Shown piece by piece: positions 28,478 through 56,277 of a DNA stretch of 64,000 nt. The position numbers and the translations under genes were made by a program. This stretch comes from a virus (taxonomy: Duplodnaviria; Caudoviricetes), in IMG/VR virus record IMGVR_UViG_3300037067_011041, positions 32,001 to 96,000 of that record; one strand, given 5' to 3'. The notes under the pieces are model-generated. The model had not been told where the DNA came from. It did not search any database and was given only the letters and a program-made list of their open reading frames with translations. Numbering within the stretch: position 1 is the first letter of the stretch; each line of letters begins with the position of its first letter.

Positions 28478-28783
28478 ATGCGTAACCCAACGGAGACGAA
28501 GACGGAGACGAACATGAACGAAAACAACCGAAGAACACTCAGGGCTCTCTTGGATATCCTAAGCGATGCCCACTTGGCAATCACTGAGCAAGGGGCCAGC
28601 GTCAATGGTGCGTTCCTCAAGTTGGATGAGAGTATCGAAGCTTCGATCGGCGTCGCTATTTATGCCAAGCGACCAAGCAGCCAAATCGATACCCTCATTG
28701 CTCTCCTGCAAGAGCAGGCACAGCGGTGCATCCGGATCGCCGAGGAACTGGAAACAGTGAAAAATAATGTGAAAGTCCCTTGA
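28478..28783 (+). CDS. Hypothetical protein
   Basis: Start placed by promoter; ends in next promoter. Confidence 0.55.
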   Translation: MRNPTETKTETNMNENNRRTLRALLDILSDAHLAITEQGASVNGAFLKLDESIEASIGVAIYAKRPSSQIDTLIALLQEQAQRCIRIAEELETVKNNVKVP

Positions 28784-28807
28784 CTTTCTCTTTGCGTGTG
28801 GTATACT
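28780..28807 (+). promoter_or_regulatory. Class-I promoter upstream of the tRNA/ncRNA region
   Basis: TTGACT-N16-TATACT. Confidence 0.85.
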
Positions 28808-28897
28808 TGAGTGTATTCAGAGCATCTTCGATAAAACGCAGAACTCGAAGACAGGAGACTCAGCTATGCCACGGGCGGGCTAAAGACCTGCTGGCAC

Positions 28898-28970
28898 TGT
28901 GCGGTAGCTCAACCGGTAGAGCAACAGATTGTTAATCTGTGGAGTGTAGGTTCAAATCCTACCCGCGCAG
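28898..28970 (+). tRNA. tRNA-Asn(GTT)
   Basis: Acceptor TGTGCGG/CCGCGCA, D arm GCTC/GAGC, anticodon ACAGA-TTGTTAA-TCTGT, T arm GTAGG-TTCAAAT-CCTAC, G73; CCA not encoded. Confidence 0.92.
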
Positions 28971-28972
28971 CT

Positions 28973-29094
28973 TCGGGAGCGGCCAAATGGAGCCACAGTT
29001 GTTTCGCCGGGGAGTCAACCCCGTGCAGGGTGGTTGGCCGGTCGACTGCAAACGGCGAATGCTTCAGCGGTGCAGCGCTGATTAAGACTCCCGA
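28973..29094 (+). ncRNA. Putative structured, possibly pseudoknotted RNA
   Basis: Nested stems TCGGGAG/CTCCCGA, TTCGCCG/CGGCGAA, TGCAG/CTGCA, TCAGCG/CGCTGA plus crossing CGGCCAA/TTGGCCG. Confidence 0.45.
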
Positions 29095-29113
29095 TAACAC
29101 AAGGAGAAGAGAA

Positions 29114-29784
29114 ATGAAGTGGGCGGCAGCCGTCATAATCGAGACATCAGAGGAGTTACTCCTTCGGGCCATGTACATACGGGCCAGCAGCCGTTATGAG
29201 GCACTTGGAAAGGCGTATGACACTGCATGTAGACTGTGGCCCGGCAGCCTGCGTGTACACGTCAACATTTGCCCAGCCGACGAGAGGCATTTAATCAACG
29301 ACCCAGAACAAGCAGAGATAGAGCCGAATGAAAATCAAAGAACTTCGTGACGCACTGAATAGGGTCGATGGCGATGCCGAGTTGACGCTGTGGTTCCACG
29401 AGAGGGGCGAGAGAGTCGAACTCGCACTCACCGAATTGGCTGTAACGGGAATGTGGCAGGCCCCAGAGAAGGGGCGGCTAACTACTGCCATATCCGATCT
29501 TCCCCTGTACGCCGAACTTACCTTCGAGATGAAATCAGATGAAGAAGAAGACTAAGCGGCACGGCAGGAAGAAGCCGTACACCATTGACGGTGTAAAGAG
29601 GCTGCCGTGCGTGCGGTGTGGCAAGCCTGCCCATGCACAATGGAACACCTGCGCCGACGGTCTTCAACGGCCAATCTGCAAGGAGTGCGACGTGCTGTTG
29701 AACTTCATTGTCTTGATGTTCATGGAAGACCCGGACATCGACGAGAAGATCGAGAAGTACGCAGCGGGCATGGAGAAGGAATAA
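29114..29784 (+). other. Three small CDSs (29114-29350, 29328-29555, 29539-29784 zinc-finger)
   Basis: AGGAG RBS; CxxC pairs in the last. Confidence 0.55.
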
Positions 29785-29789
29785 TACAC

Positions 29790-29861
29790 AGTGGACGGGA
29801 GGCAAGGCGTCTTGCGGGCCTCATAAGCCCGTAGAGGTGGGTTCGATTCCCACGTCCACAA
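29790..29861 (+). tRNA. tRNA-Met(CAT), initiator-like
   Basis: Anticodon CGGGC-CTCATAA-GCCCG; T arm GTGGG-TTCGATT-CCCAC; 1:72 mismatch and A11:U24. Confidence 0.8.
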
Positions 29862-29863
29862 CT

Positions 29864-29933
29864 TGGAGGGGCATGGCGCGACCGGGTGGATGCTAGCGGC
29901 CCGGCATGGGTGGTTCAAATCCACGCCCTCCAG
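29864..29933 (+). ncRNA. D-armless tRNA-like element (possible Ser GCT or degenerate tRNA)
   Basis: Acceptor TGGAGGG/CCCTCCA + G; T arm GTGG-TTCAAAT-CCAC; central stem CCGGG/CCCGG with loop ATGCTAG. Confidence 0.55.
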
Positions 29934-29969
29934 TTTCACTTTTACCTTTTCACTTTTCAGGAGTCACAC

Positions 29970-31202
29970 GTGCCAACAACTTTGAAGCCAGCGACAGACG
30001 GTGTTATGTTCGACGAACTTGACGACGGCCAGCTTGTTGTCGTCTTGAGTTCCGACCAAGATTACGATATCGGCAAGATCGCTCAGCGGCATGGCGACTG
30101 GCTGGTCATGGTCGGCGAGCCAGAGTCGGAAACTTACATGGAACCCGATGAACATGAACTGACCTTCCGAGTGCTGGCCGATGGTGAGTTGATCGCCGTA
30201 ACTGACAACGGCTAAACATACCGAACACGAGAGCAAGCCATGAGTGACAATGATAGACAAACGATAATGACAATCGGCCTTGTTGCTGTGTTTCTTTGTG
30301 TGCTTGCTCTCATGTTCGGCATCACTTACTTACAGCATTACAACGCTGTGACGGCCGACAAGCTTGAAGACATCAAGATGTGGGTTCGAGACACTCCGGA
30401 ACTTCAGGAACACGTTTGTAAGGCGGGCGCCGATGGTGAGTTTGACAACTGGGATTACATCCGTCTGCAACAGCTTCACTCAGAACTCAGGTATGACAGC
30501 AACGTCAAACAACTAACCACTTCGTGTGACTGACATGAGCCGAACACGTAAAGGCAGCAAAGGACCGGGATACGAGTATTGGTCGAGGCGGCCGGTGTCG
30601 CGTAAGTTCGGTACCTCTCCAGGGCCCTACTCGAAGAAGCGAACCCACTCGATTGAACGGGACGAGGAGAAGGAACTTCTCAGGAAAGAGGCAGAGGAAC
30701 TTGACGAGGATAAGGAATGAGAGATCATCACCGAGGACACAAGATTGAATGGAATGGACGCACCACATGGACGTACGCGCACTTCACCCCTTCACTGCTC
30801 AAATATGGCAAGGAGAGGCCATGCACGAAATGCGGAAAGGTGTCACGTGGGCCCGATCAATGTCTCGGGAAGCTTCCTGGTGTCAAGGCTGCATGCTGTG
30901 GACATGGCGTTGACGAAGACGCCTACATCACATTTGATAGTGGGCTCACTGTTAGAGGCCGGGACGTTCTCAGGCTGCGAGAATGTTGGATGCACCACGC
31001 CGTCGACCCAGGAACCGCCATTGCGATCTACCAGAGGCTGTCGTTCAATGTCGAGGCGACATACAAGCTTTGTCAGGCTGGAGACAGGGGAATACACAAC
31101 CTTGTGGAAATCGCCGCCATCCTGGAGATGCTTGTGCGAAAGTCGGTAGACGTTGCCGGAATCGGCGACGATCTTTTGTACTCTCGTAGAAATTTCACTT
31201 GA
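29970..31202 (+). other. Small CDSs (29970-30215, 30240-30533 membrane-anchored, 30535-30720 basic, 30717-31202 Cys-rich)
   Basis: RBS or coupling; 30240 resembles 52855-53145. Confidence 0.55.
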
Positions 31203-31226
31203 CAAACCCGTTTTCTGTGGTATACT
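31199..31226 (+). promoter_or_regulatory. Class-I promoter, leaderless (ATG at 31233)
   Basis: TTGACA-N16-TATACT. Confidence 0.85.
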
Positions 31227-31232
31227 TGTAGT

Positions 31233-31781
31233 ATGAACGCATACTTAGCCATCGACATCGAGACCAGCGGACTCAGTCCCGAAAGGAATCAAATCCTTGA
31301 GATCGGGGCGGTGCTGAACGTGCTGGATAAGCCGATAATGGAGTGTCCGACGTTCTATGCCACGGTGTGGCATGAAACTATCGTAGGTAGCTTGTATGCA
31401 CTCAAGCTGAACGCAAGTCTTATTGCGCGACTAGCCGATGGTGAAGGAAAGTCGCCGGGAGACGTAGGGACCGGCTTTCGTAGCTGGTTGCATAACCTTC
31501 GGGCTGCTTTCAATATTGAACAGTTCCATCTGCTAGGAAAGAACGTAGGAAGTTTCGACAAGCCGTTTCTTGAGGCGAGCCTTCCTTACTGGCCGTTCGA
31601 GTGGTTCTCATACCGATGTTTGGAAGTCGGCTCCATGTATGCCACGCCCGAAGGAATTCCAAGCCAGTCGGTATTGGCAAGGACTCTTACTGGATGCTTT
31701 CCAGGTGAAGAACACAACGCGTTGTACGATGCTCGTGTGTCTCTTGCCTTGGCCCGCGACAAATGGGGGATTGCGATATGA
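31233..31781 (+). CDS. Second DEDDh 3'-5' exonuclease
   Basis: IDIETSG, GKNVGSFD, HNALYDA. Confidence 0.85.
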   Translation: MNAYLAIDIETSGLSPERNQILEIGAVLNVLDKPIMECPTFYATVWHETIVGSLYALKLNASLIARLADGEGKSPGDVGTGFRSWLHNLRAAFNIEQFHLLGKNVGSFDKPFLEASLPYWPFEWFSYRCLEVGSMYATPEGIPSQSVLARTLTGCFPGEEHNALYDARVSLALARDKWGIAI

Positions 31782-33154
31782 AACCTACTCAGGAACAACT
31801 TGATCGACTGCCGAAGTGGGCCAAAGAGCACTTTGCCAAGCTGCAATACGAGCGTGATTCGGCCGTCGAGCAACTGAATTCACTGCACGACGAGCAAACG
31901 CCGACAGACATCTGGGTGGCGCATATCGAATACTCTACAGGGGAGTTCAAGGAGCGAAAGCAGTACATTGGCGGCACCCGCATTGAAGCCGAGTGCAAAG
32001 GAGTGCACCTGAATGTCAACCTGACTGAACGTGGTTTGGAATTAGGCTGGGGTCCGGCAGGCAGCGGGTCGCCGATAGGTGACATGTGCTTTATTCCTAC
32101 CTCCTACCAGCAAGCGCGAATCACCAATTTGGCGTATGATACGGACGAATTTCAACGGCTGTCAGAACGCCGGGAAAGGATCGAGAATCGTGACAACGAC
32201 TGAACAGATCATCAAACTTGGAGAAGGAATGGCCGAGATCGAGGCCGCCGTCACCACCGCCCAAGCGGAACGCAAGGCGAATCGAAAGAAAGTCAAGGGG
32301 GCACCTTGAGTCGCTTACCCGCAAGCAACTCATTGCGTTGGCAACACAGAAGAAGGTGTTGCCGTACCAACTCGCGGCCACAGAGACTCATGAACAGTTG
32401 GTGGCGGCTCTCATTGACGTCGAAGACGTGTTGAGGCCGGTGAACGCATGACAGCCATCTGTTTTAACTGCATCCATTGCCAAGGAAATCCCGAGCGAAC
32501 TGTCGAACGCAGTGTCGAGCATTGGTGTGGTTGTTCAGAGCAACTTCGCACCTGCTATGTAGATGGCAGCCGCTATCGACCGCATTGTCACCATGTAAAC
32601 ACTGACGGCAAGTGCTCAAGCTTCACTACCAGAAGGGTGACAGGCCAGCTTAAAACCCGCACCGGTGCGGTGCGTGACTTCAGTTATGCCTCGGTAGGCG
32701 ACATCGCGGCGAACCGCCACGCAATCGAAACTCAGTACATGCCCGGCAGCAAGGTACTGACCATGAGGATTCAATGAACCTCGTCCACCTGTTCAACAGC
32801 GGCCTGAAGTTTCTTGACGAGAGACTTCAGGCCGCGAAGGTAAAAACTGTGCTCGATGACGCGGGCGGGTTCGACCGTCTACAGACAACGTTCTATCTGT
32901 ATGACAAGGACATGGGTCTAGATGAAGCTTTCATCTGCGATCTGTTCCTTCAAGCTTTTGACGACTTGTCCGCCCAAATCGAACCCTACGGTATGCTGCT
33001 GGAATCCAGGCTGCTGTTCCTGGTGGACGGCAGCAAGAAGGTGTTCAACTTCACTCACTGCAAATTTCCGGTGCTGTGCTCAGCTTGGTACGACATTACC
33101 AATCAGCGAGGCACCTTCAAAATCGAACTCGACATACGAAAGGCAAAAGACTGA
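31778..33154 (+). other. Small hypothetical CDSs (31778-32203, 32448-32777, 32774-33154 and short ORFs between)
   Basis: Coupled ORFs. Confidence 0.5.
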
Positions 33155-33810
33155 TGCCGTACATTGCACGACAACAACGGGCCGCTCTTGATGTGATTAT
33201 CGACGGGCTTGTCAAGCGGACCAAAGGCTTGCCAAAAGATCAGATGCGCCGAGTGGTGTCCAACATCATCACCAAGTCATTTCTGACGGATGCTGACTCG
33301 TTCTTGATCGAGCCCACCATCGACAGCGTCGTGGGAGATCTTTGCCGCCGCATCCACACTCGCGGCGAAGCAAACTATGTTCTGTGCCGAGTGGTGTTGG
33401 AATCCATGAAGCCCGAAGGTGGCTGGGGCTATCATTCGCTCAGCGACACTATCATCGTCCTGGAAGGCGCCATTGAGGGCATCGATGAAAACTCAACGGG
33501 CACCAGTATGGACACCCTGTACGACTGTGTGTCTGTTTGTTACGACGCGGCCGATGAAATCAAGCGGCGTCTTCTCGGGCCGTATGAAGACACGGCCATC
33601 CGAAAGAACGGCGACATGGCATGCTTTGCCAACGAGCCGTTTGCCTACCTGCCTCCGATCGACTTCACGTTCGACGAGTTGGCTGGCGGGTGCTGTGGAT
33701 GCTGCCCTCCCGTTGCCGAAGCATGCTGCGACGTGCTGCCTCCCATCGCTGAAGCCTTCACGCAGGAACAGATCGACGCGGCCGAACGGGCAGCGAGAAA
33801 AACTGGCTGA
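33154..33810 (+). CDS. DUF6899-like protein with Cys-rich tail
   Basis: MPYI...GEANY...RRLLGPYEDTAIRKNGD pattern. Confidence 0.6.
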   Translation: MPYIARQQRAALDVIIDGLVKRTKGLPKDQMRRVVSNIITKSFLTDADSFLIEPTIDSVVGDLCRRIHTRGEANYVLCRVVLESMKPEGGWGYHSLSDTIIVLEGAIEGIDENSTGTSMDTLYDCVSVCYDAADEIKRRLLGPYEDTAIRKNGDMACFANEPFAYLPPIDFTFDELAGGCCGCCPPVAEACCDVLPPIAEAFTQEQIDAAERAARKTG

Positions 33811-33816
33811 ATTCGC

Positions 33817-33844
33817 TTGACTTTTGCAGTTTTCATGGTATACT
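33817..33844 (+). promoter_or_regulatory. Class-I promoter (leadered; genes 33876-34085 and SPFH)
   Basis: TTGACT-N16-TATACT. Confidence 0.85.
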
Positions 33845-34100
33845 TGTAGTATAACCTCTTCACAAGGATAAGACCGTGAGCTACAAAAGTAAAGAGCAGA
33901 AAGAAGCCGATCAAGCCATCAGAAACTGGCGGCGGGACCACCTGTTGGGTATTGTCAGATGGAGGAACGTACCTATTCCTCTTTCGATTGTAAACTCCAC
34001 TTACGACATCCCGCACACGCGGTACATTTACCGATACAAGGACGTCTACGTTTTTGGCGTCCGCGTAGCAAGAGTTCAATACTAACCCCGGAGGATCTCA

Positions 34101-35012
34101 ATGAGATCGAATTCGTCTTCTGTGCGTCCAATCATCTTGTCTTGTGTGGCGGTCGTTGCTTTGATCGTCGGCCTCATCATGGGTTGCAGTTCCTTTGAGG
34201 CGATCCCGGCCGGTAACGTCGGCGTGCCCACACTGTTCGGAAACGTGGTAGAGAAAGCCTACTCTGACGGCATGCACTTCCCCGTGAACCCGCTGTACTC
34301 GTGGACGCTGTACGACTGCCGACAAAAGAACCTTGATTGCCCGCAGATCCAGGTGCCTACGAAGGATCAGCAAACGTCGCAAATCGACTTCAGCGTACAG
34401 TACAGGATCGCAAGCACGTTGTGCCCGAAGGCCAAGTCGGAAATTGGCAACGCCGAAGACATCGTCTCTGTCCGAGTGCTGCCCAATCTCAGGTCGTTGG
34501 TTCGATCCGAAGGCAAAGGAGTAGCCCGCTGTGAAGACCTGTTTGATGAGGCTGTGCAGGCCGCGATGGAAGTCAACTTGCAGTCACGGTTGCAGCAAAA
34601 GGTTGGCGAGTACGTTGTCATCGAAGCTGTTCTAATTCGCAACGTCGCCCTGCCCGAGCATATCAAGGAGGCCATCAAGAGCAAGAAGGTTCGCGAGCAG
34701 AAGGCCGAGGAGCAGAAGGCCGAGTTGGCGCGGTTCGAGACCGAGCAGCAACAGAAGGTGAAGACGGCCCAAGCCGAACGCGAGGCCGCCGAGGAAGAGG
34801 CCAAGAAGGTCACCGTCATGGCGGATGCAGAGGCGTATGAGATCAAGGCAATCAATGCCGCACTGGCCGACAGCCCGAACTTCATCCGTCTTCGTGCCCT
34901 CGATACGCTCAACGAATTGTCCAAGAACCCGGCGACCCAGTTGTACTTCCTCAATGGCGACTCGCCCGACCCGCTTCCCTTGATGCACCTCGGTGCCCCT
35001 GTGACGAAATAG
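34101..35012 (+). CDS. Prohibitin/SPFH-family membrane protein
   Basis: TM anchor, IPAGNVGV, GMHFPVNP, VPTKDQQ, C-terminal coiled coil; GGAGG RBS. Confidence 0.9.
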   Translation: MRSNSSSVRPIILSCVAVVALIVGLIMGCSSFEAIPAGNVGVPTLFGNVVEKAYSDGMHFPVNPLYSWTLYDCRQKNLDCPQIQVPTKDQQTSQIDFSVQYRIASTLCPKAKSEIGNAEDIVSVRVLPNLRSLVRSEGKGVARCEDLFDEAVQAAMEVNLQSRLQQKVGEYVVIEAVLIRNVALPEHIKEAIKSKKVREQKAEEQKAELARFETEQQQKVKTAQAEREAAEEEAKKVTVMADAEAYEIKAINAALADSPNFIRLRALDTLNELSKNPATQLYFLNGDSPDPLPLMHLGAPVTK

Positions 35013-35051
35013 CGTAGTCTCGCTGTGGGCGACAGTCGTCGCCCGCAGTCT

Positions 35052-35137
35052 GGGTTGTGTCCCTCACGGCGGACTGTAAATCCGTTGTCATTAACTAGTG
35101 AGGTGGCTGACAAGAGGTTCAATTCCTTCACAACCCA
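35052..35137 (+). tRNA. Non-canonical tRNA-Tyr(GTA): 8/4 fold, no D stem, long variable arm
   Basis: GGGTTGTG/CACAACCC + A73; anticodon GCGGA-CTGTAAA-TCCGT; T arm GAGG-TTCAATT-CCTT; variable stem TGTCA/TGACA. Confidence 0.75.
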
Positions 35138-35238
35138 CTAACTTACAATGAGGTAGCTGTGAGCACACTTGATATACTGGCCATGTGCGGATCGTTCGTC
35201 TTAATCATGATGATTCCAATCCTGTCTCGGAGAATTCC

Positions 35239-35928
35239 GTGAACTTCAAGCGTAAGAAGATCCGTGGGCAGAACGCCAAGACCAAGCGAACCTGGATGGA
35301 TGATGACGGCAACTACCGCATCACATGGTCTACTGATATCGCCGGTATCAAGATGGATGCCCCTGTTATCCATGCGTGCGTTTTCACGGACTGGGGCTGG
35401 GGCTTCGCTGGTAAGCGGGGCCCCTACAAGACGGTGAAGGCGGCCAAGCAGGCTTGCGAGTTCAACAAGGAACTTTGGGATGCGTTCCTGTCTATGGAGG
35501 GCCGCGACAAGATAGCCCAGTACAATGTGCTGCGACACAAGTCGATGGTGGGCAGCGGTAAGAGCGCGGTGTCGGCCATGTCCGATATTCCATTGTGGGT
35601 GCTTGGGCTGGCCGATGAGCGGCAGTTGTCAATCATCTGCCCCAAAAGAAAAGGCGACGAATGCGATTACCAGGACGACCCTACGCCAATATCGAACATT
35701 TCAGACGCATCTACCCATGGTCAAAGTGGGGAAAGCCAATCAAGTACCCCTGTACCAGATGCTCCTGTGAAGGCTGCCCGGCGTGCAACGGCACGGGAAA
35801 AGGGACGAAAGAAGAACTCGAAGCCCTCTACAACAAAACGATCCGGGACTGGGAAGACGCGTACAAAGCGATCTACAAGTACAACCAGTTCATCGCGTCG
35901 CTCACGACAAAAGAAAGAGAAATCCTAG
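35239..35928 (+). CDS. Hypothetical protein with basic low-complexity tail overlapping next gene
   Basis: GGAG RBS and GTG start. Confidence 0.55.
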   Translation: MNFKRKKIRGQNAKTKRTWMDDDGNYRITWSTDIAGIKMDAPVIHACVFTDWGWGFAGKRGPYKTVKAAKQACEFNKELWDAFLSMEGRDKIAQYNVLRHKSMVGSGKSAVSAMSDIPLWVLGLADERQLSIICPKRKGDECDYQDDPTPISNISDASTHGQSGESQSSTPVPDAPVKAARRATAREKGRKKNSKPSTTKRSGTGKTRTKRSTSTTSSSRRSRQKKEKS

Positions 35929-35951
35929 TCAGCAGAGGTGTGACGCCATGA
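35661..35951 (+). CDS. Small DnaJ-type zinc-finger protein
   Basis: CTRC...CPACNGTG; ATGA-coupled to 35948-36343. Confidence 0.6.
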   Translation: MRLPGRPYANIEHFRRIYPWSKWGKPIKYPCTRCSCEGCPACNGTGKGTKEELEALYNKTIRDWEDAYKAIYKYNQFIASLTTKEREILVSRGVTP

Positions 35952-36342
35952 GTTTTGCCGACTTTTGCAAAGACAAGCTTGACGAACGAAACAAGACTAA
36001 CGAAGACGCGAGTCTCCGTGCCGCCGAGCGTCTAAGCATACTGATGCAGGCCGTAAGCTGTGTAGAAGACATCGGTTTGAAAGCGATCAAGGGCAACAAC
36101 TATTGGCAGCTTATCATTTGTACCTCGAATGTGGATTGGCGAGCCAGAATCGAACAAGGGGTGTTGAACGGCCGGGTATGGTCAGAGACATTTAATGGAG
36201 ACAAGTACCGAGTGAAACTATCGAACTCAAACGACCCTGGGTATGAATTCGATAGCTTCATAACTGAAGACCAGAAGGCCCTTAACCGCTGGGTGCGGAA
36301 CAAGCTGGCTGACTACGCTATCGACGCAGGGCTGATTAAGTA

Positions 36343-36762
36343 ATGGACCCAAAAAAGTTCCGCAGCAAGATGGGCCCGGAGGCCATAATCCAGAGGGACT
36401 TTATTGAGTACCTGACGCTGCGTGGCTGGCATGTTGAACGAATGATCGGCAACGCCCTGCAAATGGGCATCCCAGACATCTACATCATGCACTTTCAGCA
36501 TGGCAAGCGGTGGGTCGACCTGAAGAACCCGATCGATTACGAGTTCACGAAGGCGCAGAGAATCAAGTGGCCTATCTGGGAGAAGAACGGGACTGGAATC
36601 TGGATCATAACCGGAGCCACCGACGAAGAGTACGCCAAGCTGTGGCGACCGCCGAACTGGCGAGAGTATTGGAAACCTCGATACGACGAAGAGCAGCTAG
36701 AACTGGAAGAGGACTTGCGGTGGCTGTTCGATGAATTTCACGCGGAGAACGCAAATGAATAG
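36343..36762 (+). CDS. VRR-NUC-like PD-(D/E)xK endonuclease
   Basis: EAIIQ...GIPDIY...WVDLK...TKAQ. Confidence 0.8.
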   Translation: MDPKKFRSKMGPEAIIQRDFIEYLTLRGWHVERMIGNALQMGIPDIYIMHFQHGKRWVDLKNPIDYEFTKAQRIKWPIWEKNGTGIWIITGATDEEYAKLWRPPNWREYWKPRYDEEQLELEEDLRWLFDEFHAENANE

Positions 36763-37390
36763 ACCAGCAGTGGGTGTGGCCGTCGCCGTACGCCGCAATG
36801 ACCGAGTGCTTCTCGGGCTTCGAGAAAGAGAGCCAGGGGCTGGAACCTGGATGCTTCCTGGAGGCCATCTGGAGAGCGGAGAATCATTTGAGGATTGCGG
36901 TCGCCGCGAGATTGAGGAAGAGACAAGCATCATCCTGGATGATATCCGGTTTTGGACAGTAGGCAATGTCATCTACCGTCTAGAAGATCAACATTGGGTT
37001 GTAATCTACATGGTGGCCGACCTTCCTGATGGACAAGAGGCAAAGGTAACAGAGCCTGAAGAGTGCAAAACCTGGGGCTGGTTTCTATGGGACGAGTTGC
37101 CATGGCCACTGATGCTCAGTACAGGCAACCTGATTGTTCGCGGGTTGAATCCATTCAAAGTTGGGCGTGGGCTTACTGCTAGACCGATGACCGAAGCAAT
37201 TCACGGCCGTTATGTCGGCCCCGAAGCAAGATTCTGGCATAGGACGGCCGACATTGTAGTCGACGGTCTATTCGTTCGGGCCCAGTTTGACGGTGGCGCC
37301 TTATGGGAGACCAATTCACGACTTACATTCAGACTGGACGAATGGGAAGTCGATATCAACGGAAACTGGCAACCCCTGGTGGTTCAATGA
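36755..37390 (+). CDS. Nudix hydrolase (MutT/NUDT15-like) with C-terminal extension
   Basis: PGGHLESGESFEDCGRREIEEET; EPEECKTWGWF. Confidence 0.9.
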   Translation: MNRPAVGVAVAVRRNDRVLLGLREREPGAGTWMLPGGHLESGESFEDCGRREIEEETSIILDDIRFWTVGNVIYRLEDQHWVVIYMVADLPDGQEAKVTEPEECKTWGWFLWDELPWPLMLSTGNLIVRGLNPFKVGRGLTARPMTEAIHGRYVGPEARFWHRTADIVVDGLFVRAQFDGGALWETNSRLTFRLDEWEVDINGNWQPLVVQ

Positions 37391-37749: not shown

Positions 37750-37757
37750 TCGATCAA

Positions 37758-39004: not shown

Positions 39005-39009
39005 ACCGA

Positions 39010-47325: not shown

Positions 47326-48793
47326 AGCACCTTATGACACCTGGGGCTATCATCTTGGCGGGTATGATCCGAGACCCGTTCCGTTACGACGTTATCTGTG
47401 CTTTCAGAACGAAGTGATCGTTGGCTGGCACGAAGATGAGTTAGTGCGGTTTGTGATGGAAAAACACCCCGAAGCAAGCCGTCTGCCTGCCAGCGGAAAG
47501 CACACTGCCCTTCCATGGGATATCGTAAGTGTGTTTGTTATCGATAATCCGGAAGCTATCGACGGCGTTACGACGGTGGCATACTTGTGGAGGGAGCGAC
47601 TCTGATGTGCGTTCTAACTAACGTCGGTTACTTCGGCTGCGAATTGCCTACACTCGAATGTAGCGAGTGCGACACGCGATTCTCAATAACCTGGAATCGC
47701 AACCCGATATACGACCAACCAAGGTACTGTCCGTTCTGCGGAGAAGAGATCGAAGTAATCGTTTGGGAAGTTGAGGACGACGATGGCCAGTAAAACCTGC
47801 CCGGCGTGCCAGAAGGTCCACGGCCCTCGCAAGAAAGTGTGCGAGTGTGGCCACGACTTCGGCGTGAAGACCGCCAACCATCCTGGTGGCACATACCCGG
47901 AGCCCGGCTCTCGGGTGCTCGAACACATGAAGGGCATGCCAGAAGTAGAACTAGGAACAGTCGTCACTGAGATGACCCCCACCGAGGAAGTGAAGCAACA
48001 GGTGTCGATTGAAGGTCTTGGGTACTGCATCTACACACTAATTCCTGCCAACAAGATCGAAGATCCGACGCTACGGTCCCTGTGGAAAGTGGCGCGAAAA
48101 GCCATGCAAGACATCGTTGTCTGGCTGAATCAACCTTGAGGAACAAATGAAAATCGAAGAACTGGAATTGCTGTTGTCCAACTATCCGCCAGAGACGAAC
48201 GTGCTGTTCACTCTTGGCGATCATATCTCAATGAATTACGTGCTTGCTTTCCCTGTGCCAAGGGAGACGATCATGTTGGAGTTGTGCAACTTAGATGACA
48301 CCGGGGTGTCGCAAGGTCTGCCTGACAACCTTACCGTCGTGGACAAGGATGAACTGGAAACGGCCCGCAAGGTGCTGGCCTTGGTCATTAAATGCCGCCG
48401 ACAAGACTTGCTGGCAACCAAGCTTGAAACTGAGGGCGACCCGGACGGCAAGTTGAAGGCTACCCTAGACCAATTGGACTATGAGTCAGACGAACTCATG
48501 GCCGTGATTGACAAACATATCGAGAGCACCCGATGAGCGAATACCTTGATTGCCGGGGCGTGCGAATCACAATCGGGGACGTAATCGTCTACCCGGTCCG
48601 ACGCAAATCAACCATGGTGCTGAAGGAAGCCACCGTATGCGACATTCCAGGGAAGGGTTGTACCGTCAAGAAGGGCCTCGTGGCCCTGAGTCCCGAAGGC
48701 AAGCGGGTTATCGTGTCACGTACCGATCGCTGTGCCGTCGTGTCCGATTTCAGCAAGAGGAGAAAGAATGGCGACGTACCAGTATCAGTGTGA
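47318..48793 (+). other. Small CDSs, several zinc-ribbon (47318-47605, 47605-47793, 47783-48139, 48147-48536, 48533-48793)
   Basis: Coupled ORFs, CxxC pairs. Confidence 0.55.
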
Positions 48794-48977
48794 GTGTGGC
48801 GAAGTGATCGAGCGGGACTTCCCGATTGCCGAGAGAAAGCAGCGGGTGAAATGCCCGGTGTGTGGGAAAATGGCCGACCGGGCTATTCTCTCGTGCCCGG
48901 CCGCGATATGCCGTTACAGCCTCATTGAAAGGAATCTCGGAAACCCGCGAGTAAACCGGGGAAAGGGTCGCCGATAA
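48768..48977 (+). CDS. FmdB-like zinc-ribbon protein
   Basis: MATYQYQCECG...CPVCG; GAGGAG RBS. Confidence 0.75.
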   Translation: MATYQYQCECGEVIERDFPIAERKQRVKCPVCGKMADRAILSCPAAICRYSLIERNLGNPRVNRGKGRR

Positions 48978-49783
48978 TGCTCAATCGACTTCGCAACACC
49001 AGATGCTATTTGTGCGGCGCGATGGACCGGGTACGCGATGGCGGCGTCGAATGGCGAGCCCGGATTCAATCCTCGCTCTCGCACCTCGGAATCAATTGGC
49101 TTGACCCCTGCAACAAGCCGATTGATATTGGGATCGAGGACATGGAAAACAGGGCCCTTCGTCGCGAATACAAACAGAAGGGCCTGTGGGACAAAGTCTA
49201 CGATCTGATGCACCCTGTGCGTTGCGTAGATCTCCGTATGGTCGATGTATGTGACTTCGTCGTCGTGCTTATCGACGTCAGCATACACGCCTGTGGAACG
49301 TACGAGGAAATCTTCTGGGCCAATCGACAGAAGAAGCCAGTGTTCGTCATGGTGGCTGATGACAAGGTGAACATCCCTGACTGGCTGGTGGCCACCCTTC
49401 CTCATGAGTATTTCCACGACTCATGGGAAGAGCTATTCGCGCACATTGAGAAAGTGGACCACGACCCCGCATTTGTTGACAATTACCGCCGTTGGTATTT
49501 CTTCAACTGGACAGGGGACACCGACACCAAGCTTGAGTTCAAGGACTCGTATCGGTCTCCGGTATTTCATCCGGACCCGAGCCGCCGTCTACGAACGTTG
49601 GTTAAGTCTGTCGGCTGGGAGACGTTCTCCATGCTGCTAACATTTCTCATTTCGTACCTTGTTGTAGGTGACACCCGAGAGGCAAGCGAATTGACAGGCA
49701 TCTTGTTCGGACTGAAAGTGTTCTGCCTTTACGGTTACGAACGCCTGTGGCACAAAATCAGATGGGGTAAATATGCTGTATAG
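48977..49783 (+). CDS. Nucleoside 2-deoxyribosyltransferase-like domain fused to DUF2061-like membrane domain
   Basis: YLCGAM, DLRMVDVCD, GTYEEI; C-terminal RTLVKSVGW...YERLWHKIRWG. Confidence 0.75.
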   Translation: MLNRLRNTRCYLCGAMDRVRDGGVEWRARIQSSLSHLGINWLDPCNKPIDIGIEDMENRALRREYKQKGLWDKVYDLMHPVRCVDLRMVDVCDFVVVLIDVSIHACGTYEEIFWANRQKKPVFVMVADDKVNIPDWLVATLPHEYFHDSWEELFAHIEKVDHDPAFVDNYRRWYFFNWTGDTDTKLEFKDSYRSPVFHPDPSRRLRTLVKSVGWETFSMLLTFLISYLVVGDTREASELTGILFGLKVFCLYGYERLWHKIRWGKYAV

Positions 49784-50270
49784 CAATGAAATCCGCATGT
49801 TGATGCGTTCAGCCTATGGGGCGGCCATAAACTCTGATGACAGGGTCACCAAAAACGGAGCCGCCATCATCAACAGTGGAGGAGACGTCCTGGTTCGCGG
49901 TTGGAACCATTTTGTCGACGGCTGGGGCGACGATGAAGCCCACCATGAGAGGCCGTTCAAATACAGTGTGACAGAGCACGCTGAAAGGGACGTGATCTAT
50001 AAAGCTGCCAACGTTGGCGTTGCATGTCAAGGAAAAACCATGATAGCCAACTGGGTTGCTTGCCCTGAATGTGCAAGAGCCATCAAATTGGCCGGTATCA
50101 AGCTTGTGATCTGTCACAAGGAATGCATGGATAGGACGCCCGATAGATGGGCCGAGATGGTAGCCCTTGGATTGTCGATACTAAAGAAGGGCGGCGTGGA
50201 ACTCGTTCAATGGAGCGGCAAGGTTGACCGAGTACAGAACCTTAACAACGGAGAGATCTGGGAACCATGA
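49773..50270 (+). CDS. dCMP deaminase
   Basis: HAE and ACPECARAI zinc motifs. Confidence 0.88.
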   Translation: MLYSNEIRMLMRSAYGAAINSDDRVTKNGAAIINSGGDVLVRGWNHFVDGWGDDEAHHERPFKYSVTEHAERDVIYKAANVGVACQGKTMIANWVACPECARAIKLAGIKLVICHKECMDRTPDRWAEMVALGLSILKKGGVELVQWSGKVDRVQNLNNGEIWEP

Positions 50271-50815
50271 TCGGAGCAATCATTTACTCTGTGCTGGTGA
50301 TTTTGGTATTGGCGTGGTCGCGGGCATCGGCGATCAGCGCCGATTCAAAATGGCAGAAAAAGCTTCGGCTCGTTGAGGAGCAGCTAAAGAAGGCCAACAC
50401 GCCTGTACTGTACAACAAGTACCCTGAGTTTGATGAGCAAGTGCCGCTGGGCCTTGTAAGCGGTCACATCACACGCCAACTTGATGAGCCAAGCGATCAT
50501 GGCTTGAAGAAGTTGTATGAGTCATTGTTGGAAGACAACGACAATGTCAGCAAGCTGACAGTTTTCCTTGACACAGAGTATGGCACCTTTGTACGTACAC
50601 TTGAGAAAGATGCCTTCAGGGATGTCAAGGTAGACGACTCGTCCGCGCACGTGCACACTAAATGGGCTCCTATACACTGCGGTAAAGCATGCACAGTAAA
50701 TGGATACATTGTGTTCCAAGACTCAATCTTGAAATACTTTGCCAGCGACATTGACATGCATCCTGGGGACGTTCTAAACTTATCGTATACGTTGAATCCA
50801 AAGGACGTTGAATGA
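50267..50815 (+). CDS. Membrane-anchored hypothetical protein
   Basis: N-terminal TM segment; ATGA coupling. Confidence 0.55.
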   Translation: MIGAIIYSVLVILVLAWSRASAISADSKWQKKLRLVEEQLKKANTPVLYNKYPEFDEQVPLGLVSGHITRQLDEPSDHGLKKLYESLLEDNDNVSKLTVFLDTEYGTFVRTLEKDAFRDVKVDDSSAHVHTKWAPIHCGKACTVNGYIVFQDSILKYFASDIDMHPGDVLNLSYTLNPKDVE

Positions 50816-51387
50816 CCCTGGACGAATATCAACAACACTCTCGACACAACGGAGACAACATGCTTCTCAACGAATATCAGACTGGCGCAGTCAGCACGGC
50901 GATCTACACCGGCAAACTGGTCTACCCTACTCTCGGACTGTGCGGCGAACTGGGCGAGCTACTGGAGGCCATGCAAAGTCGACCCGCCAGTCGAGATCGA
51001 ATCATGAAAGAGGCAGGAGATGTCCTTTGGTATGCAGCGAATGTAGCGGCTGACATTGATATGCAACTATCTGATATCATGGGCCGCGATGTTTTCGTGG
51101 ACGACGATGAATGGTACGTTGCAGACATTGTTGTGGAACTCCCTCTGTGGACTGGACAGGTAGCAGAAAACGCCAAGAAAATTCTTCGAGACAACGGCGG
51201 CGAGGTAACTGCCGACAGGTCAAAGAAGATCGCAGAGGCGTTGAAAAACATCATCCTTCTTCTGGAGCGGCTATGCGGCTCTTGCTTTTTTGGCTTCACT
51301 CTGGAAGAGTGTGCCCAACTTAACTATGAGAAGCTAACCTCGCGGCAGGAACGCGGGGTGCTTCGTGGCGATGGAGACAATCGATGA
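50812..51387 (+). CDS. MazG-like nucleotide pyrophosphohydrolase
   Basis: LGLCGELGE, KEAGDVLWY, NYEKLTSRQERGVLRGDGDNR. Confidence 0.88.
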   Translation: MTLDEYQQHSRHNGDNMLLNEYQTGAVSTAIYTGKLVYPTLGLCGELGELLEAMQSRPASRDRIMKEAGDVLWYAANVAADIDMQLSDIMGRDVFVDDDEWYVADIVVELPLWTGQVAENAKKILRDNGGEVTADRSKKIAEALKNIILLLERLCGSCFFGFTLEECAQLNYEKLTSRQERGVLRGDGDNR

Positions 51388-51842
51388 GACAACTTGTTTC
51401 GGCTTTGCTGTTCTACTATCTCGGAGGAGTTACTCTGGCGACGGCATTCGCGGTCGGCTTTGGTAACAGTGGCCTGGATGCCCTTGTTTCGGCTGCTCAG
51501 TGGCCGTACTATGTTGGCCTGTTCCTTGTCGAACTGTACTCGGCATGAAACTCAACCTGAAAATCGTCAGCATAAATCCAGAAGGTGATGGAGTAACTTG
51601 CCTGTATATCAACAATATGTTGCACATGTACGGCGATTACTACCATAACAAAATCGATGACTGGATAGCTGGCTTCGTAGCCGGTCTTAACTTCGATCGG
51701 CCATCTACCGACAATATCGAGCCCGAGAACTGGTATGTCCTTGGAGAAAGCTATGAAGATCCAGATCAACTAGAAGATCTCATGCTAAACCCACCAAGCG
51801 TTTTTGCCGCTCTTCCAGCCCTAACACAGGAGTATTGACGCA

Positions 51843-52727
51843 ATGCGGTGTTTGTTCCTCGTTTGTTTGCTTTCTGTGTCGGCGTTCGGTCAAACCGCAT
51901 CCGAACTCCGTTCGCATGTCGAGTATCTCGCTTCCGATGAACTCGGAGGCAGGTACCCGGCAAGCGATGGCATGCAGAAGGCCAAGGACTATGTCCGGGC
52001 CGAATGCAAGAAACTTGGCTTGCAGACGTACACGCAGGACGTGGCAGTCAAGGGCGGCACCTGCCAGAACGTTATTGCTGTGCTTGAAGGACAAGACCCC
52101 AGCAAGCGAATTGTCATTGGCGCCCATCTGGACCACATCGGCCAGCGAGGCAACAACAGCCGCGACGCCTTGTACACGGGCCCTACGGTTTACAACGGGG
52201 CAGACGACAACGCTTCTGGGTCGGCGGCCGTACTGGCTCTTGCCAAGCGACTGGCCAATACCAAGCCTGGATGCACCTTGGAATTCCACTGGTACACTGG
52301 TGAAGAGCAGAATCTGCTTGGCTCCAAATACTGCACACAGAGCCCGGTCGGAAAGATTGACGAGTACAAACTGATGGTCAATCTCGACATGGTCGGCAGG
52401 CTACAGGATGGGCTATCCGGGGACGCCCCATTCCCCTTCGACTTGACGCCTCTGTATGCCAAGTACCCGTTTGCCGAAGGCATAACCATTGCTCGTGACA
52501 CCAGAGACAGCGATCACTCGTCCTGGTGGCAGGCAGGTGTCCCGGCCGTGTTGCTTCACACTGGCTTGCATCCGGACTACCACAAGCCCGGAGACGACGC
52601 GAACAAGATCAACTACGACGGGCTGGTAAAGGTGTGTCAGTACGCCTGCGATCTGGTGTGCATGATGGATCAGGAACTGGTGCCACACCAGCCGGTGGTG
52701 AAGCCGAACCGGCCGATCCTGTACTGA
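51843..52727 (+). CDS. Secreted M28-family metallopeptidase
   Basis: Signal peptide; GAHLDH, GADDNASG, GEEQNLLGS, NLDMVG, SDH, DYHKPGD. Confidence 0.92.
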   Translation: MRCLFLVCLLSVSAFGQTASELRSHVEYLASDELGGRYPASDGMQKAKDYVRAECKKLGLQTYTQDVAVKGGTCQNVIAVLEGQDPSKRIVIGAHLDHIGQRGNNSRDALYTGPTVYNGADDNASGSAAVLALAKRLANTKPGCTLEFHWYTGEEQNLLGSKYCTQSPVGKIDEYKLMVNLDMVGRLQDGLSGDAPFPFDLTPLYAKYPFAEGITIARDTRDSDHSSWWQAGVPAVLLHTGLHPDYHKPGDDANKINYDGLVKVCQYACDLVCMMDQELVPHQPVVKPNRPILY

Positions 52728-52729
52728 CC

Positions 52730-53514
52730 ATGAGAATACGCCCGATTATTGCTTGGTACGACGTGTGGATCGGCGCCTACTGGGACCGATCCACACGTCG
52801 TCTTTATCTGATGGTGCCAATGGTTGGCATCGTCCTTGACTTTGGAGACCGCGAATGAGATTTGGCTTGTTCATCTATTGTTTGTCCTTGGCGGTTTTGA
52901 TTGCGTTATCATTGGTTATATTCAATGACCTTGAAAGTCCTATTGGACTTAGCCAGACACAAGACATTATCCAGATGGTCGAAGAGGAGCCGACTCTTTC
53001 TTCAACCGTTCGAGAGTACAACGCTGACGGCGTGATTACTCAACTGGAGTTTATCTACATCCGGAATCAGTTCTACTCTCTGCAAGAAGCAAGGGTGAAG
53101 GAAGAACTGGAAAGAAAGATCAACCCCAGACGGAGGCCATGTTGACATGTCACGAAGTAGCTACATCTACTTGGCCGTCGACCGAGAAACCGACAAGACG
53201 CTCGCCGGGTTCACCGTGAAGTACGAGATGTTCGACTGGCTGAAGTGGCACAAGAGAACACCGGCTGACACCCGCCTCTATCGCCTATGCGGGGTTAGAT
53301 GGACCAAGACACTGGAAGAGAAGGCCCCGATCGAATTTGAATGGGAATAACAATGGCCGATAGATTGATTGTGATGCTGCCTGGAATGACGTTGGGCTTG
53401 TACGCGTTGACGGCCGTCGCCTTCGCCACGAAGAAGGAGTATGGCTGGTGCCTAGCCTACGCGGCCTACGCCTTAGCCAACGTAGGGCTTATCCTGGCAT
53501 CACTTGGAAAGTAG
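52730..53514 (+). other. Last small plus-strand CDSs (52730-52858, 52855-53145, 53147-53350, 53353-53514 membrane)
   Basis: Coupled ORFs; converge with minus arm near 53515. Confidence 0.5.
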
Positions 53515-53515
53515 G

Positions 53516-56168
53516 CTACTGCCTCAGCTTCTTCAGTTCGCCGAGGATCTCGCTGCGTCTTTGCTCAAGGTCTTTCCGGTCGACAGTGAACATTACGTTG
53601 TCGATAGCGGCCTCGACGCCAGCGAGTTCAATCTCCAAGGCTGAAATAGCTACCTGTGCCTGATAGGCAAACATCTGTTTTCGCAGGTTGCCCTTTGGGT
53701 TTACGCCCCTGCCGATTCGTTTTCGTCTCATTGGTCAGATTCCATAGTTGCGGCTGTTCAGACACTGATCGTACCACGCTTGACGGTTTTTACGCCTTTC
53801 TTCTGGCGTGTCCACGTTGTCAATTACCATGTGCACATCGCACAACTCTCCATCAACATAGAACCGGGTGGTAAGCCGATTTCCTTGAAGCGTGGCGCCC
53901 ATGCCAGTGCTAGATATTGCTAGCCGCAATTGCTCAAGCACTTTTTTCTCTTCGCTTGTGTACTCACAACGATACAGGTGTCCCATGATGCCTCCTGGTT
54001 ACTTTACTCGAAAGACGACTTCGCCGTCTTCCCCGGCCCCCGTGTAAAGTTCTTCGAGTTTTGATCTTGGCAAATCGATCTCAAGATTCTTATCCAGACC
54101 GATGTAGATCAGTTCCGAATCTGGGTGAATCATATATGTCAAGTCTGAAACCCAGCCGCTGTGATCCGGTCGCGCTACCACGATAAGCTTGTCTGGTTCG
54201 CGCAAAAGGCTAACACGCTGGGCTGGCATCGGCAGAAGGAAGTTGACACATTCCCTATGCACCTCTTCATTCGGCCGTGGCTCAACGGCCACTAGCTTGA
54301 CTCCTCGTTTCACCAACGCTTTGGAAAACACACACTGACCGGCCCCGACTTCGATCGTGACCCGCTCACCTGCATAGTCAGCAAACCAATCGCAGAATTG
54401 CGGGTACGGCTCAAAGTGAGTGACAACGTTTGGTGGCAGCAGGTTGAACATATTGAGATCAAGCATCACAGTCTCCAGATCCAAATGGTCCCTATCTTCA
54501 CGACGCGGCCGTCGACGATTTTTATACTGGTCCAACCGGCGATGGCGTCTTCGTATTTCATGCAAACGCTTTTGCTTCGTCAGGGGTCAGGTAGCCGGAG
54601 CCACCACATAGGCCGCACACTTGCCCCGTGAATTTGCTGATTTTCGTTGTTTCGCAGTCTGGGCAGTCGACTCGAACTTCGCAAGCGAAACGTTCGTCGC
54701 AGCATGTGTGGCGAAATTCTTGATCGTCACAGCGTTGCCACGGCAACTCGGTAACCACCGTCAGCAGTCTCCGTGCGTTTCGTCCGTCAAGATGAATGAA
54801 GCCTACAGGAATACCGGGGAAGTCTCCTCCGTCCCACCAGATGCCGCTGGTGACGCCGCGATAAACCATTGCCCCTTCGAGATCCGCTACACCCCGATCG
54901 ATGCTTCCGACTATCACAAGGCCGCTGCCAAGTTCCTTGTACTGCTCGAAAGCGCTTTCAGCGTGCTTCTCAAGGCTGCCGATCAGTCCTTTGTTCCGGT
55001 CGCACCACCATGTGCTGCTGGGCTTGTATGCGTAAGAGTAAAGATGCGCCTGGATCGATTTGCCATCTAGCCGTACTAGTTGACGCCTCTTCCGCATTGT
55101 ATAGACATACACGCCCATTTGTTTTGTATCCCTGTCCTTGAAAGTAGTCTTCGATAAGTAGGTAAAGAAGGTCTTCACGTAAAGAGCGTTGAAAATTGCT
55201 ACATCGCTGAAGGTCTACGCACACCCAGAACATGAGGGAGTCGCTCAAAACCTTCGTATCGGCCCCTTGTTGTTTCAGTTGCCAGACAACCGGGGCCAGC
55301 TTGCTCATAAGCGATTGCCACCGATCGTGTTCTTGCTCCTCGACATCCATGAGATGCCACGCCACGCCGCAGTACGGGTCGCATTCAACATATTGACGCT
55401 CATCAAACCAGTCGCTGATGATTGTGCGAAACGTAGTCAGGTCAACGTGGCTCATTGGTGCCCTACAGTTTGAACGAGGTTATAGCATACTCGGTTTTGC
55501 AACACACGCAATAGACGAGTACGCGGGTCTCACCGACGCCTGGGGTCGCGAGTATCTCTCTAAACCGGTCTCTCAGTCCGTCACCTTCTTCGTCCAAAAC
55601 GGCCTCGAATTTGCTGTGTGCGCCGCAGTAAGGACAGGAGACGTAAAATGCAAGGCTGACGTGGGCGGCTACTTCTTTCATCGCCGCTCTCTCAACTCGG
55701 CCATTACGCCAGAAACCAGTGTGCACACCCCGTTCCAAATACAGAAGCCTGCTGATGCCCCCACGGCCCCTGACCAACCGCATTGTGCTCCAACAATGGT
55801 GACGGCAAGAAGATGAAAAGGGGAAATCTTCCAGTAGAACAGTTCGTTGTTACCCAGGCGTTCTTTCATAGTTACCACTCGTTTATCTCGGGTCCGTAAG
55901 CAGTGAACCGCATTGGTTCACCAGTCAACTTCAGTTCGTCGTCCCACACTTCAAGGAACTCATCTAGCGGACGCAGGTAGGCCCGCTCGTCAGTTCCAAG
56001 ACTTTCAACTTCTCCTTTCACAGAGAAGGTAGCCATCCCCATTGCCATGATGAACTCATCGAGGCACGCGTGCTCTTGCAAAATCTTGCGGGCAAGTCGC
56101 CTGACTTCCGCCAAGGCCAACTCTGTTGCCTTGTTGAAGTGAAATTCGATCTGCTTGTTGATTCGCAT
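53516..56168 (-). other. Minus-arm small hypothetical CDSs (53516-53731, 53735-53986, 54558-55178, 54970-55455, 55872-56168 and others)
   Basis: Tightly packed ORFs. Confidence 0.5.
53999..54565 (-). CDS. Putative SAM-dependent methyltransferase-fold protein
   Basis: IEVGAGQC glycine loop, LVAVEP. Confidence 0.5.
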   Translation of the reverse strand: MHEIRRRHRRLDQYKNRRRPRREDRDHLDLETVMLDLNMFNLLPPNVVTHFEPYPQFCDWFADYAGERVTIEVGAGQCVFSKALVKRGVKLVAVEPRPNEEVHRECVNFLLPMPAQRVSLLREPDKLIVVARPDHSGWVSDLTYMIHPDSELIYIGLDKNLEIDLPRSKLEELYTGAGEDGEVVFRVK

Positions 56169-56179
56169 CTTCTCTCCAG

Positions 56180-56277
56180 TGGAGGTGTCCGGAGTCGAAC
56201 CGGAATCCTAGCCGTACTCGCTACTTACACATGGGCCTTTTCGCTCAAACGCACGGTAGTCGAAACCTGTCACCCCC
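56180..56277 (-). ncRNA. Minimal tmRNA-like RNA (tRNA-like domain only, 98 nt)
   Basis: 5' GGGGGTGACAGGTTTCGAC; 3' TCCGG-TTCGACT-CCGGA-CACCTCC-A; G3:U70; P2-like helix. Confidence 0.8.

Follow-up and report, generated by a model that had tools for sequence, protein, structure and literature searches.

Several described departures from the usual plan of bacterial tRNAs and transfer-messenger RNA (tmRNA) come close to the RNAs reported here. Mycobacteriophage DS6A is listed with a tmRNA that consists of the tRNA-like domain (TLD) alone, the "TLD only" form (tmRNA Website; PMC4131195, PMC11915505), and a similar molecule is reported to inhibit tmRNA, perhaps via titration of SmpB (PMC4131195, PMC11915505). 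The 8/4 tRNAs of Mukai et al. (2017), i.e., tRNA-Ser, tRNA-His and the allo-tRNAs, split the 12-bp branch of acceptor and T stem into 8 and 4 bp, carry a long variable arm, occur in phage tRNA clusters and are missed or mis-scored by tRNA finders; the allo-tRNAs, including the 8/4 tRNA-Ser, have a tRNA-Sec-like D stem-loop (PMC5389517). In the text of that study the word "pseudoknot" is absent and Tyr appears in a reference title only (PMC5389517). Mitochondria use a tRNA-Ser(GCU) in which a short linker takes the place of the D arm and the anticodon stem is lengthened (PMC7609411). Here we describe tRNA-shaped RNA genes in a 64,000-nucleotide stretch (the window) of a Caudoviricetes virus, which comprises bases 32001-96000 of the 117,327-bp IMG/VR record IMGVR_UViG_3300037067_011041 (CheckV completeness 100%). 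The two elements of main interest are a putative pseudoknotted tRNA-Tyr, which lacks the D hairpin, and a predicted mini-tmRNA, reduced to the tRNA-like domain.

The window contains five tRNA-shaped elements. A first-pass annotation had placed and described them correctly, as judged by ARAGORN, Rfam and the sequence itself: only the tRNA-Asn is a textbook tRNA, and the remaining four (a CAU tRNA, a Ser-like, a Tyr and a tmRNA-like element) all have acceptor and T arms and differ on the D side. The Rfam gathering cut-offs are 29 bits for the tRNA model RF00005 and 47 bits for both the tmRNA model RF00023 and tRNA-Sec. The RF00005 cut-off is exceeded by the Asn and CAU tRNAs, and neither the Tyr nor the Ser-like element is reported at gathering level. 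ARAGORN calls three tRNAs in the complete genome at default settings and ten with -ps90. The same annotation had combined the elements into one coordinated toolkit made by the phage, and this interpretation is not supported, as the families do not co-occur and close relatives have neither the Tyr element nor the mini-tmRNA. The Tyr type is absent from each of 27 viral records with a mini-tmRNA, four of which are complete. Conversely, no mini-tmRNA scores above the Rfam cut-off in the 15 other records with the Tyr type, one of which has a full-length tmRNA. The relatives G002 (96% complete, with seven tRNA hits) and G003 have neither of the two; the closest relatives keep the tRNA-Asn. From the comparison of sequences we conclude that the elements are best described as separately acquired accessory genes located in variable regions. 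On balance they are probably independent small-RNA genes, each belonging to a family of its own that is gained and lost separately, and with a role proposed for each. The toolkit framing should therefore be dropped, and the value of the locus lies in the individual RNA families.

The Tyr element has no D hairpin, and its acceptor/T branch is of the 8/4 type (Table). In the proposed fold nucleotides 11-16 and a strand of the variable region would rebuild a D-like helix (H1) beneath the anticodon stem, pseudoknotted with the variable-arm stem (H2), and an invariant GG might stand in for G18G19. All helices of the window copy are fully paired, and it has the complete layout of its family with an 8-bp acceptor, 4-bp T stem, H1 and GUA. 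ARAGORN makes no call here, and among the Rfam models tRNA-Sec comes closest, with a score of 29.8 bits (E 0.037) that lies below the cut-off. The element shares with the 8/4 tRNAs the division of the branch, the long variable arm, the position in phage tRNA clusters and the failure of the finders. However, the D stem-loop of the allo-tRNAs is missing and the corresponding helix is formed via the variable-region strand. With canonical class II tRNA-Tyr it has in common the loop CUGUAAA, A73, G1-C72, the long variable region and the Tyr slot in phage arrays, whereas it differs by the absence of D hairpin and loop, the 8/4 instead of the 7/5 branch, the pseudoknot, the lack of an ARAGORN call and a sub-threshold RF00005 score, if there is any match at all. 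In a literature search we found no description of a pseudoknotted tRNA-Tyr without D hairpin.

When viral contigs were scanned for the pattern and the matches parsed, 13 further distinct sequences of this type were obtained, none of which is called by ARAGORN, and these were aligned with MAFFT. The covariation score of the viral sequences alone is 0.386 compared to 0.106 in shuffles (reached in 0/500) and 0.06-0.09 in slid controls. Together with ten bacterial sequences the family comprises 24 distinct members, 14 of them viral; here the score is 0.533 versus 0.157 (again 0/500 shuffles reach it, slid controls 0.07-0.14), and 96.3% of the cells in the alignment are paired, compared to 78.4% in shuffles. 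Two-sided changes are present at 22 of the 27 pairs. H1 is 100% paired with compensatory changes at five of its six pairs, and the acceptor covaries at 8/8 pairs, including the eighth (GC/UG/AU). The GUA anticodon is retained by every strong member of the family, and the GG following the 3' strand of H1 is invariant.

The identity set of the bacterial tyrosyl-tRNA synthetase (TyrRS) consists of G1-C72, A73, the GUA anticodon and a long variable region. All of these can be read in the window copy (with G34/U35 in the anticodon), so that charging with tyrosine and decoding of UAY codons would be expected. Apart from the window copy there are 15 viral loci, and at 14 of them the Tyr element adjoins other tRNA genes (up to 27; a single neighbour at one locus), mostly within about 10 nt, and at 14 of the 15 no further tRNA-Tyr is found by ARAGORN. 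The element thus fills the tyrosine slot of these arrays, as would be expected of a working decoder more than of a decoy, i.e., of a tyrosine tRNA that would function with a fold other than the cloverleaf. In viral contig G133 (locus L085) a full-length tmRNA (4727-5082, 156 bits) is located about 1 kb from a knotted tRNA-Tyr (3682-3772).

The same architecture is found in bacterial chromosomes. A scan of bacterial genomes detected it in three Phycisphaerae metagenome-assembled genomes (MAGs), in the Planctomycetaceae chromosome CP030884.1 and in one Anaerolineales MAG, and further copies in Planctomycetota, each genome having a single one, came from a search with the family model R1. In 121 Planctomycetota genomes there are at least six strong and at least three weak matches, a prevalence that is a lower bound, since 36 candidates per genome were scored. 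The bacterial copies have ordinary chromosomal genes as neighbours, among them topA and the genes of a serpin, a sulfate permease and a chemotaxis receptor. The window copy is 81% identical overall and 86% in the core to the Phycisphaerae copies, compared to at most 80% in the core to viral copies, and the window and bacterial copies alike do not encode CCA. This speaks against a re-engineering of the Tyr element by the phage, as had been proposed at first, and the closeness to Phycisphaerae copies suggests a host-type gene and a Planctomycetota host. The genes flanking the Tyr element have no counterpart in the relatives, and a search with the adjoining SPFH-domain gene gave no related viral locus. 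For L108, a viral copy of the family, no match was obtained in cultured phages. One Planctomycetota genome has a weaker R1 match (L202:1501-1587, 36.8 bits) with apparently the same rewiring, in which CCGCC and GGCGG are paired across the anticodon arm, and with the loop CUUAUGA (UAU); judging by this sequence the knotted design may extend beyond tyrosine. If the knotted tRNA-Tyr decodes, bacteria and phages would have an elongator tRNA that is not a cloverleaf, a kind for which the literature search likewise gave no description. As it is missed by standard finders, tRNA sets of phages and Planctomycetota would be under-annotated and seemingly devoid of Tyr. It would also provide a natural test of the D-arm needs of TyrRS, EF-Tu, RNase P and the ribosome, and possibly an orthogonal scaffold.

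The mini-tmRNA lies between two small open reading frames (ORFs) on the minus strand, with the TGA stop of the upstream ORF inside its first 8 nt. The Rfam tmRNA model matches at 56177-56277 (-) with 49.3 bits, just above the cut-off; the two ends of the model (1-22 and 341-374) are aligned, with 46 nt in place of the 318 of the model. The 98-nt element consists of the acceptor GGGGGUG/CACCUCC with G3:U70, A73, a stemless D analogue (GGUUUCGAC), the P2 helix, a middle of 54 nt and the T arm, and it is followed by CUG, not CCA. The D arm had been counted as missing, i.e., as one more alteration; however, a stemless D region is ordinary tmRNA anatomy. An mRNA-like domain with tag frame and pseudoknots could not be recognized in the element, and it should be filed as domain-only and not as a full tmRNA.

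A viral pattern scan revealed 39 contigs with 27 further distinct sequences of 77-105 nt, which gives 28 with the window copy. MAFFT put the variation in linker length at the 5' end, and pairs were counted by anchored parsing instead. G3:U70 and A73 are invariant in 28/28 sequences. Pairing is complete (100%), and accompanied by covariation, in the acceptor and T stems, and it amounts to 85% in the P2 helix versus 45% in shuffles. In most members the middle has 32-36 nt, P2 being capped by a small covarying hairpin, and there is no room for a tag frame. The genes are mostly solitary, and in the sampled phages they adjoin genes for portal, capsid, peptidase or nuclease proteins and not integrase genes. 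The pattern was found in 0/401 Planctomycetota genomes, and blastn against cultured phages gave four weak matches to tmRNA 3' ends only, all in Streptomyces phages.

The combination of G3:U70 and A73 is the alanine identity read by the alanyl-tRNA synthetase (AlaRS), and it predicts alanylation of the mini-tmRNA, whose domain would be the part that binds SmpB. Since no tag frame is conserved in the family, we infer that the RNA competes with the tmRNA of the host for SmpB and for stalled ribosomes, and it would in this way inhibit or alter trans-translation during infection. The element resembles that of DS6A in being phage-encoded and in having little beyond the tRNA-like domain, with neither a conserved tag frame nor pseudoknots. 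It differs in being one of 28 sequences from uncultivated phages, with a 54-nt middle and no encoded CCA in the window copy; the likeness is one of description. With these sequences the mini-tmRNA turns from a single curiosity (DS6A) into a recurrent phage gene, and phage interference with ribosome rescue becomes testable. Neither the mini-tmRNA nor the Tyr gene has a promoter-like site of its own, and host RNase P together with 3' processing would thus release both from longer transcripts, after which the host enzyme would add CCA.

Of the remaining elements the CAU tRNA has a D stem of 3 bp capped by 7 nt and an anticodon stem of 6 bp; positions 1 and 72 form an A.A mismatch, and CCA is not encoded. 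Its homologue in G002 and G003 shares the anticodon arm, whereas the D stem there has 4 bp and a UGGU tetraloop, and acceptor and T stem show compensatory changes. Viral CAU tRNAs with this anticodon arm have D regions of 11 nt (13 distinct sequences), 13 nt (4), 16 nt (7), 17-18 nt (7) and then of canonical length, and the 16-nt class shows covarying 4-bp stems with xGGx loops. Going by these sequences the window copy is a mild case in a continuum of compact D arms, and it would be a working decoder. In five genomes no host tRNA with this anticodon arm was found. The 13 distinct viral sequences with 11 nt between acceptor and anticodon stem (L223, L227, L229, L232 and nine more) form a tight family, in which the anticodon stem is lengthened and all members end with ACCTGCCA.

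The Ser-like element starts 1-3 nt after the CAU tRNA and precedes a Shine-Dalgarno sequence and an ORF. The acceptor is paired at 7/7 positions, a linker of 11 nt replaces the D arm, the anticodon stem has eight positions with one G.G mismatch, the variable region measures 4 nt and the T stem 4 bp, and there is no Rfam family match at E<=5. The GCU-type loop, the short linker and the lengthened stem are reminiscent of mitochondrial tRNA-Ser(GCU); the bacterial/phage setting is different, and we regard this as a resemblance only. Bacterial SerRS needs a long variable arm, which the element does not have, and a pattern search for host versions of it gave only apparent ordinary tRNAs with long variable arms. 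At the same offset behind the CAU tRNA, G002 has a partner with a perfect 7-bp acceptor, in which three pairs are changed on both sides, and with about 46 extra nt. This single comparison argues for selection on the acceptor stem. Among the relatives, non-decoding tRNA-like elements adjoin tRNA-Asn or tRNA-Met in L003 (14053-14121; 4-nt anticodon loop, 36 bits), L177 (14387-14453; an 8/4 element with CCCC-UAGC-GGGG as sole hairpin) and L176 (16801-16881; 14-nt loop, 35.9 bits), and L003 has in addition a 115-nt multi-hairpin RNA closed by acceptor and T arm (15517-15635). The motif CUAGCGG occurs in three of four such elements of relatives and in the Ser-like element of the window. Given these non-decoding elements, a processing or other non-decoding role is as likely for the Ser-like element as that of an adaptor; it could be a tRNA-like RNA that serves as a processing signal.

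Table. Features of the window discussed in the text (positions are those of the window).
Feature	Position	Strand	Basis or remark
Promoter-like site (TTGACT, 16 nt with TG, TATACT)	28780..28807	+	Consensus match only; about 90 nt upstream of tRNA-Asn
tRNA-Asn (GUU), canonical	28898..28971	+	ARAGORN; RF00005 71.2 bits
tRNA CAU (Met, or Ile2 if lysidine-modified)	29790..29862	+	ARAGORN default; RF00005 31.2 bits
D-armless Ser-like tRNA-like element, loop AUGCUAG	29864-29933	+	Sequence; ARAGORN -ps90 only
Putative pseudoknotted 8/4 tRNA-Tyr (GUA)	35052-35137	+	Family model R1 99.6 bits; covariation; sequence
Tyr acceptor	35052-35059 with 35129-35136	+	8 bp
Tyr H1 (D-strand helix)	35062-35067 with 35098-35103	+	Nucleotides 11-16 and variable-region strand
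Tyr anticodon arm	35069-35085	+	GTA at 35076-35078
Tyr H2	35087-35090 with 35108-35111	+	Crosses H1, giving the pseudoknot
Tyr invariant GG	35105-35106	+	Right after the 3' strand of H1
Tyr T arm; A73	35114-35128; 35137	+	4-bp T stem; CCA not encoded
Predicted mini-tmRNA, tRNA-like domain only	56180-56277	-	RF00023; sequence; 28-sequence viral family; ORF map

Several observations weigh against the reading of the elements as separate genes with the roles proposed above. The bacteria with the knotted tRNA-Tyr also hold a canonical class II tRNA-Tyr, in three genomes about 5.5 kb away, and the knotted form may have a special, non-housekeeping role. Two bacterial members (L199 and L201, both Planctomycetota) have C33 in the loop CCGUAAA in place of U33, which is near-universal in tRNAs. 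The assignment of the host leans on the similarity of a single gene, and the Ser-like element is by score alone at chance level and remains uncertain. The middle of the window mini-tmRNA is longer than that of most members and can be read as a 14-codon frame (GCG...UAG), so tagging by this copy is just conceivable. Transcription, processing, charging by TyrRS and AlaRS, tyrosine decoding and competition for SmpB are each proposed on the strength of sequence. A tag frame in the 54-nt middle was considered and rejected as unsupported: there are stops in all three frames and most members of the family have no room for one. The tag peptide of tmRNA usually has a hydrophobic end, which is lacking in the peptide of the 14-codon frame.

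It is unlikely that the elements are after all one kit for counter-defence or translation control, with the D side changed in order to evade host nucleases or modification enzymes, or to act as decoys, while EF-Tu, RNase P and the CCA enzyme still accept the RNAs. Phage tRNAs do replace host tRNAs that are cut by defence nucleases, tRNA-Tyr included, and the kept acceptor/T branch with a differing D side in all four elements, the use of knotted tRNA-Tyr in place of the canonical one by the phages that have it, and the retention of both types by the hosts, as would suit a nuclease-resistant spare, all fit such a kit. However, the lack of co-occurrence and the absence of the Tyr element and mini-tmRNA from close relatives contradict it, the Tyr design is found on chromosomes of the lineage that is likely to include the host, the anticodon loop as the usual target of nucleases is unchanged, and the D side of the mini-tmRNA is normal for tmRNA. 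A CCA-adding enzyme, the sole tRNA-repair function that was searched for, was not found. Moreover, the common retention of acceptor and T arms is partly a matter of ascertainment, because these arms make an element recognizable as tRNA-shaped. In a more speculative reading, to which we give a low probability, the knotted tRNA-Tyr would be a second, orthogonal tyrosine adaptor of Planctomycetota and many phages, preferred by phages because some host enzyme (nuclease, modification or quality control) that recognizes canonical tRNA-Tyr by its D arm would not act on it. In this phage it would act jointly with the mini-tmRNA, which shuts off tagging of proteins from cleaved or stalled messages, both being parts of one strategy to sustain translation.

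For the Ser-like element and the anticodon-less elements of the relatives, a function as processing punctuation, i.e., as tRNA-shaped landing points for RNase P and RNase Z, which would cut polycistronic transcripts beside tRNA and mRNA segments, would fit with the position between tRNA-Met and Shine-Dalgarno sequence, with the similar elements beside tRNA-Asn in L003, L177 and L176, and with compensatory changes that preserve the acceptor stem when the middle differs by about 46 nt. We nevertheless regard it as rather improbable: the 7-nt loop of the window copy is well formed, with positions that resemble U33 and A37, a single homologous lineage is available for comparison, and in a related strain the sequence that follows the CAU tRNA, of which 30 nt are covered, looks like a plain hairpin, so that the element may be dispensable. 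Decay of tRNA genes, with acceptor and T arms in common only since remnants are recognized by them, appears highly unlikely. The Ser-like element is below every model threshold, the tRNA content is very variable among relatives, the Asn homologue of one relative (L172) has a GUA anticodon with A33, and a loose acceptor+T scan of the genome barely exceeds shuffles (46 matches versus about 30), all of which would be in line with decay. The strong compensatory covariation in the Tyr and mini-tmRNA families, the compensatory changes in the CAU tRNA and the Ser-like acceptor and the intact helices of the window Tyr copy are not. The first-pass view of selection rather than decay is thus confirmed by covariation for the Tyr element and the mini-tmRNA, and on fewer data for the CAU tRNA and for the Ser-like acceptor compared to G002, with the Ser-like element as a whole uncertain. 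Stem-preserving substitutions in relatives, by which that view was to be checked, were found for the CAU tRNA and, in G002, for the Ser-like acceptor, and the closest relatives lack both the Tyr element and the mini-tmRNA. For many temperate elements the site of integration is the 3' end of ssrA, whose 3' part they carry, and an integrase is encoded somewhere in the genome of three of the four complete mini-tmRNA phages. The mini-tmRNA could accordingly be a phage attachment site (attP) for integration into host ssrA and not an expressed RNA, but this is extremely improbable, as the 5' half and the covarying P2 are kept, which an attP does not need. The role was rejected on account of the neighbour genes elsewhere, which are not integrases, and the absence of a tyrosine integrase from the phage of the window. 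We therefore keep to the reading as separately acquired genes.

The tRNA-Asn is located downstream of the DNA polymerase gene in most of the relatives compared and would be an ordinary decoder, the sole one of the five elements common to most relatives. Directly 3' of it, the stretch 28973-29094 starts with GCTTCGGGAGCGG and finishes with ACTCCCGATAAC. The relative L177 has the same two ends at 14587-14675 with a different middle, and the stretch therefore looks like a conserved structured RNA or a leader. In L172, the closest relative with 82% polymerase identity, the tRNA in the Asn position (14950-15019) has a 5' half 92% identical to the tRNA-Asn of the window and the loop CAGUACA. Outside the window the phage encodes a tRNA-Leu (UAG) of 75 nt with a variable region of 4-5 nt (G000:C1:108282-108356, minus strand; Rfam 44.5 bits). 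In bacterial tRNA-Leu the variable arm is normally long. Viral tRNA arrays that carry the Tyr family also include short genes, 77 nt in length, for Leu(tag) and Leu(taa).

The window holds phage genes for a DNA polymerase, a primase, a helicase, an exonuclease and a ligase, and searches of the phage for tyrosine integrase, SmpB and a CCA-adding enzyme found none of them. The regions have no nucleotide match in cultured phage genomes (megablast). Relatives were identified in viral and metagenome collections via the polymerase (66-84% protein identity), and the replication module is syntenic with theirs. The stretch from the polymerase to the ORF at 36343 is hypervariable, with about 3 to 9 kb and few genes in common among relatives; for the nearest relatives (L176, L177 and L180) the comparison covers the flanks of the locus. 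This is probably a lytic-type phage with a Planctomycetota host. Near-identical extended -10 promoter-like sites (TTGAC[AT], 16 nt with TG, TATACT) at 28780, 31199 and 33817 are spread across the variable region and may represent a set of early phage promoters.

A contig of a related strain spans 34824-35142 with at least 11 of 14 differences upstream of 35050. Related-strain contigs from wastewater runs, two of which carry the label RNA-Seq but are probably DNA, diverge from the window at 35142, the exact 3' end of the Tyr gene, and at 29857, within the tRNA-Met 3' end, and as these breaks coincide with tRNA ends, tRNA genes may mark mosaic joints in this group of phages.

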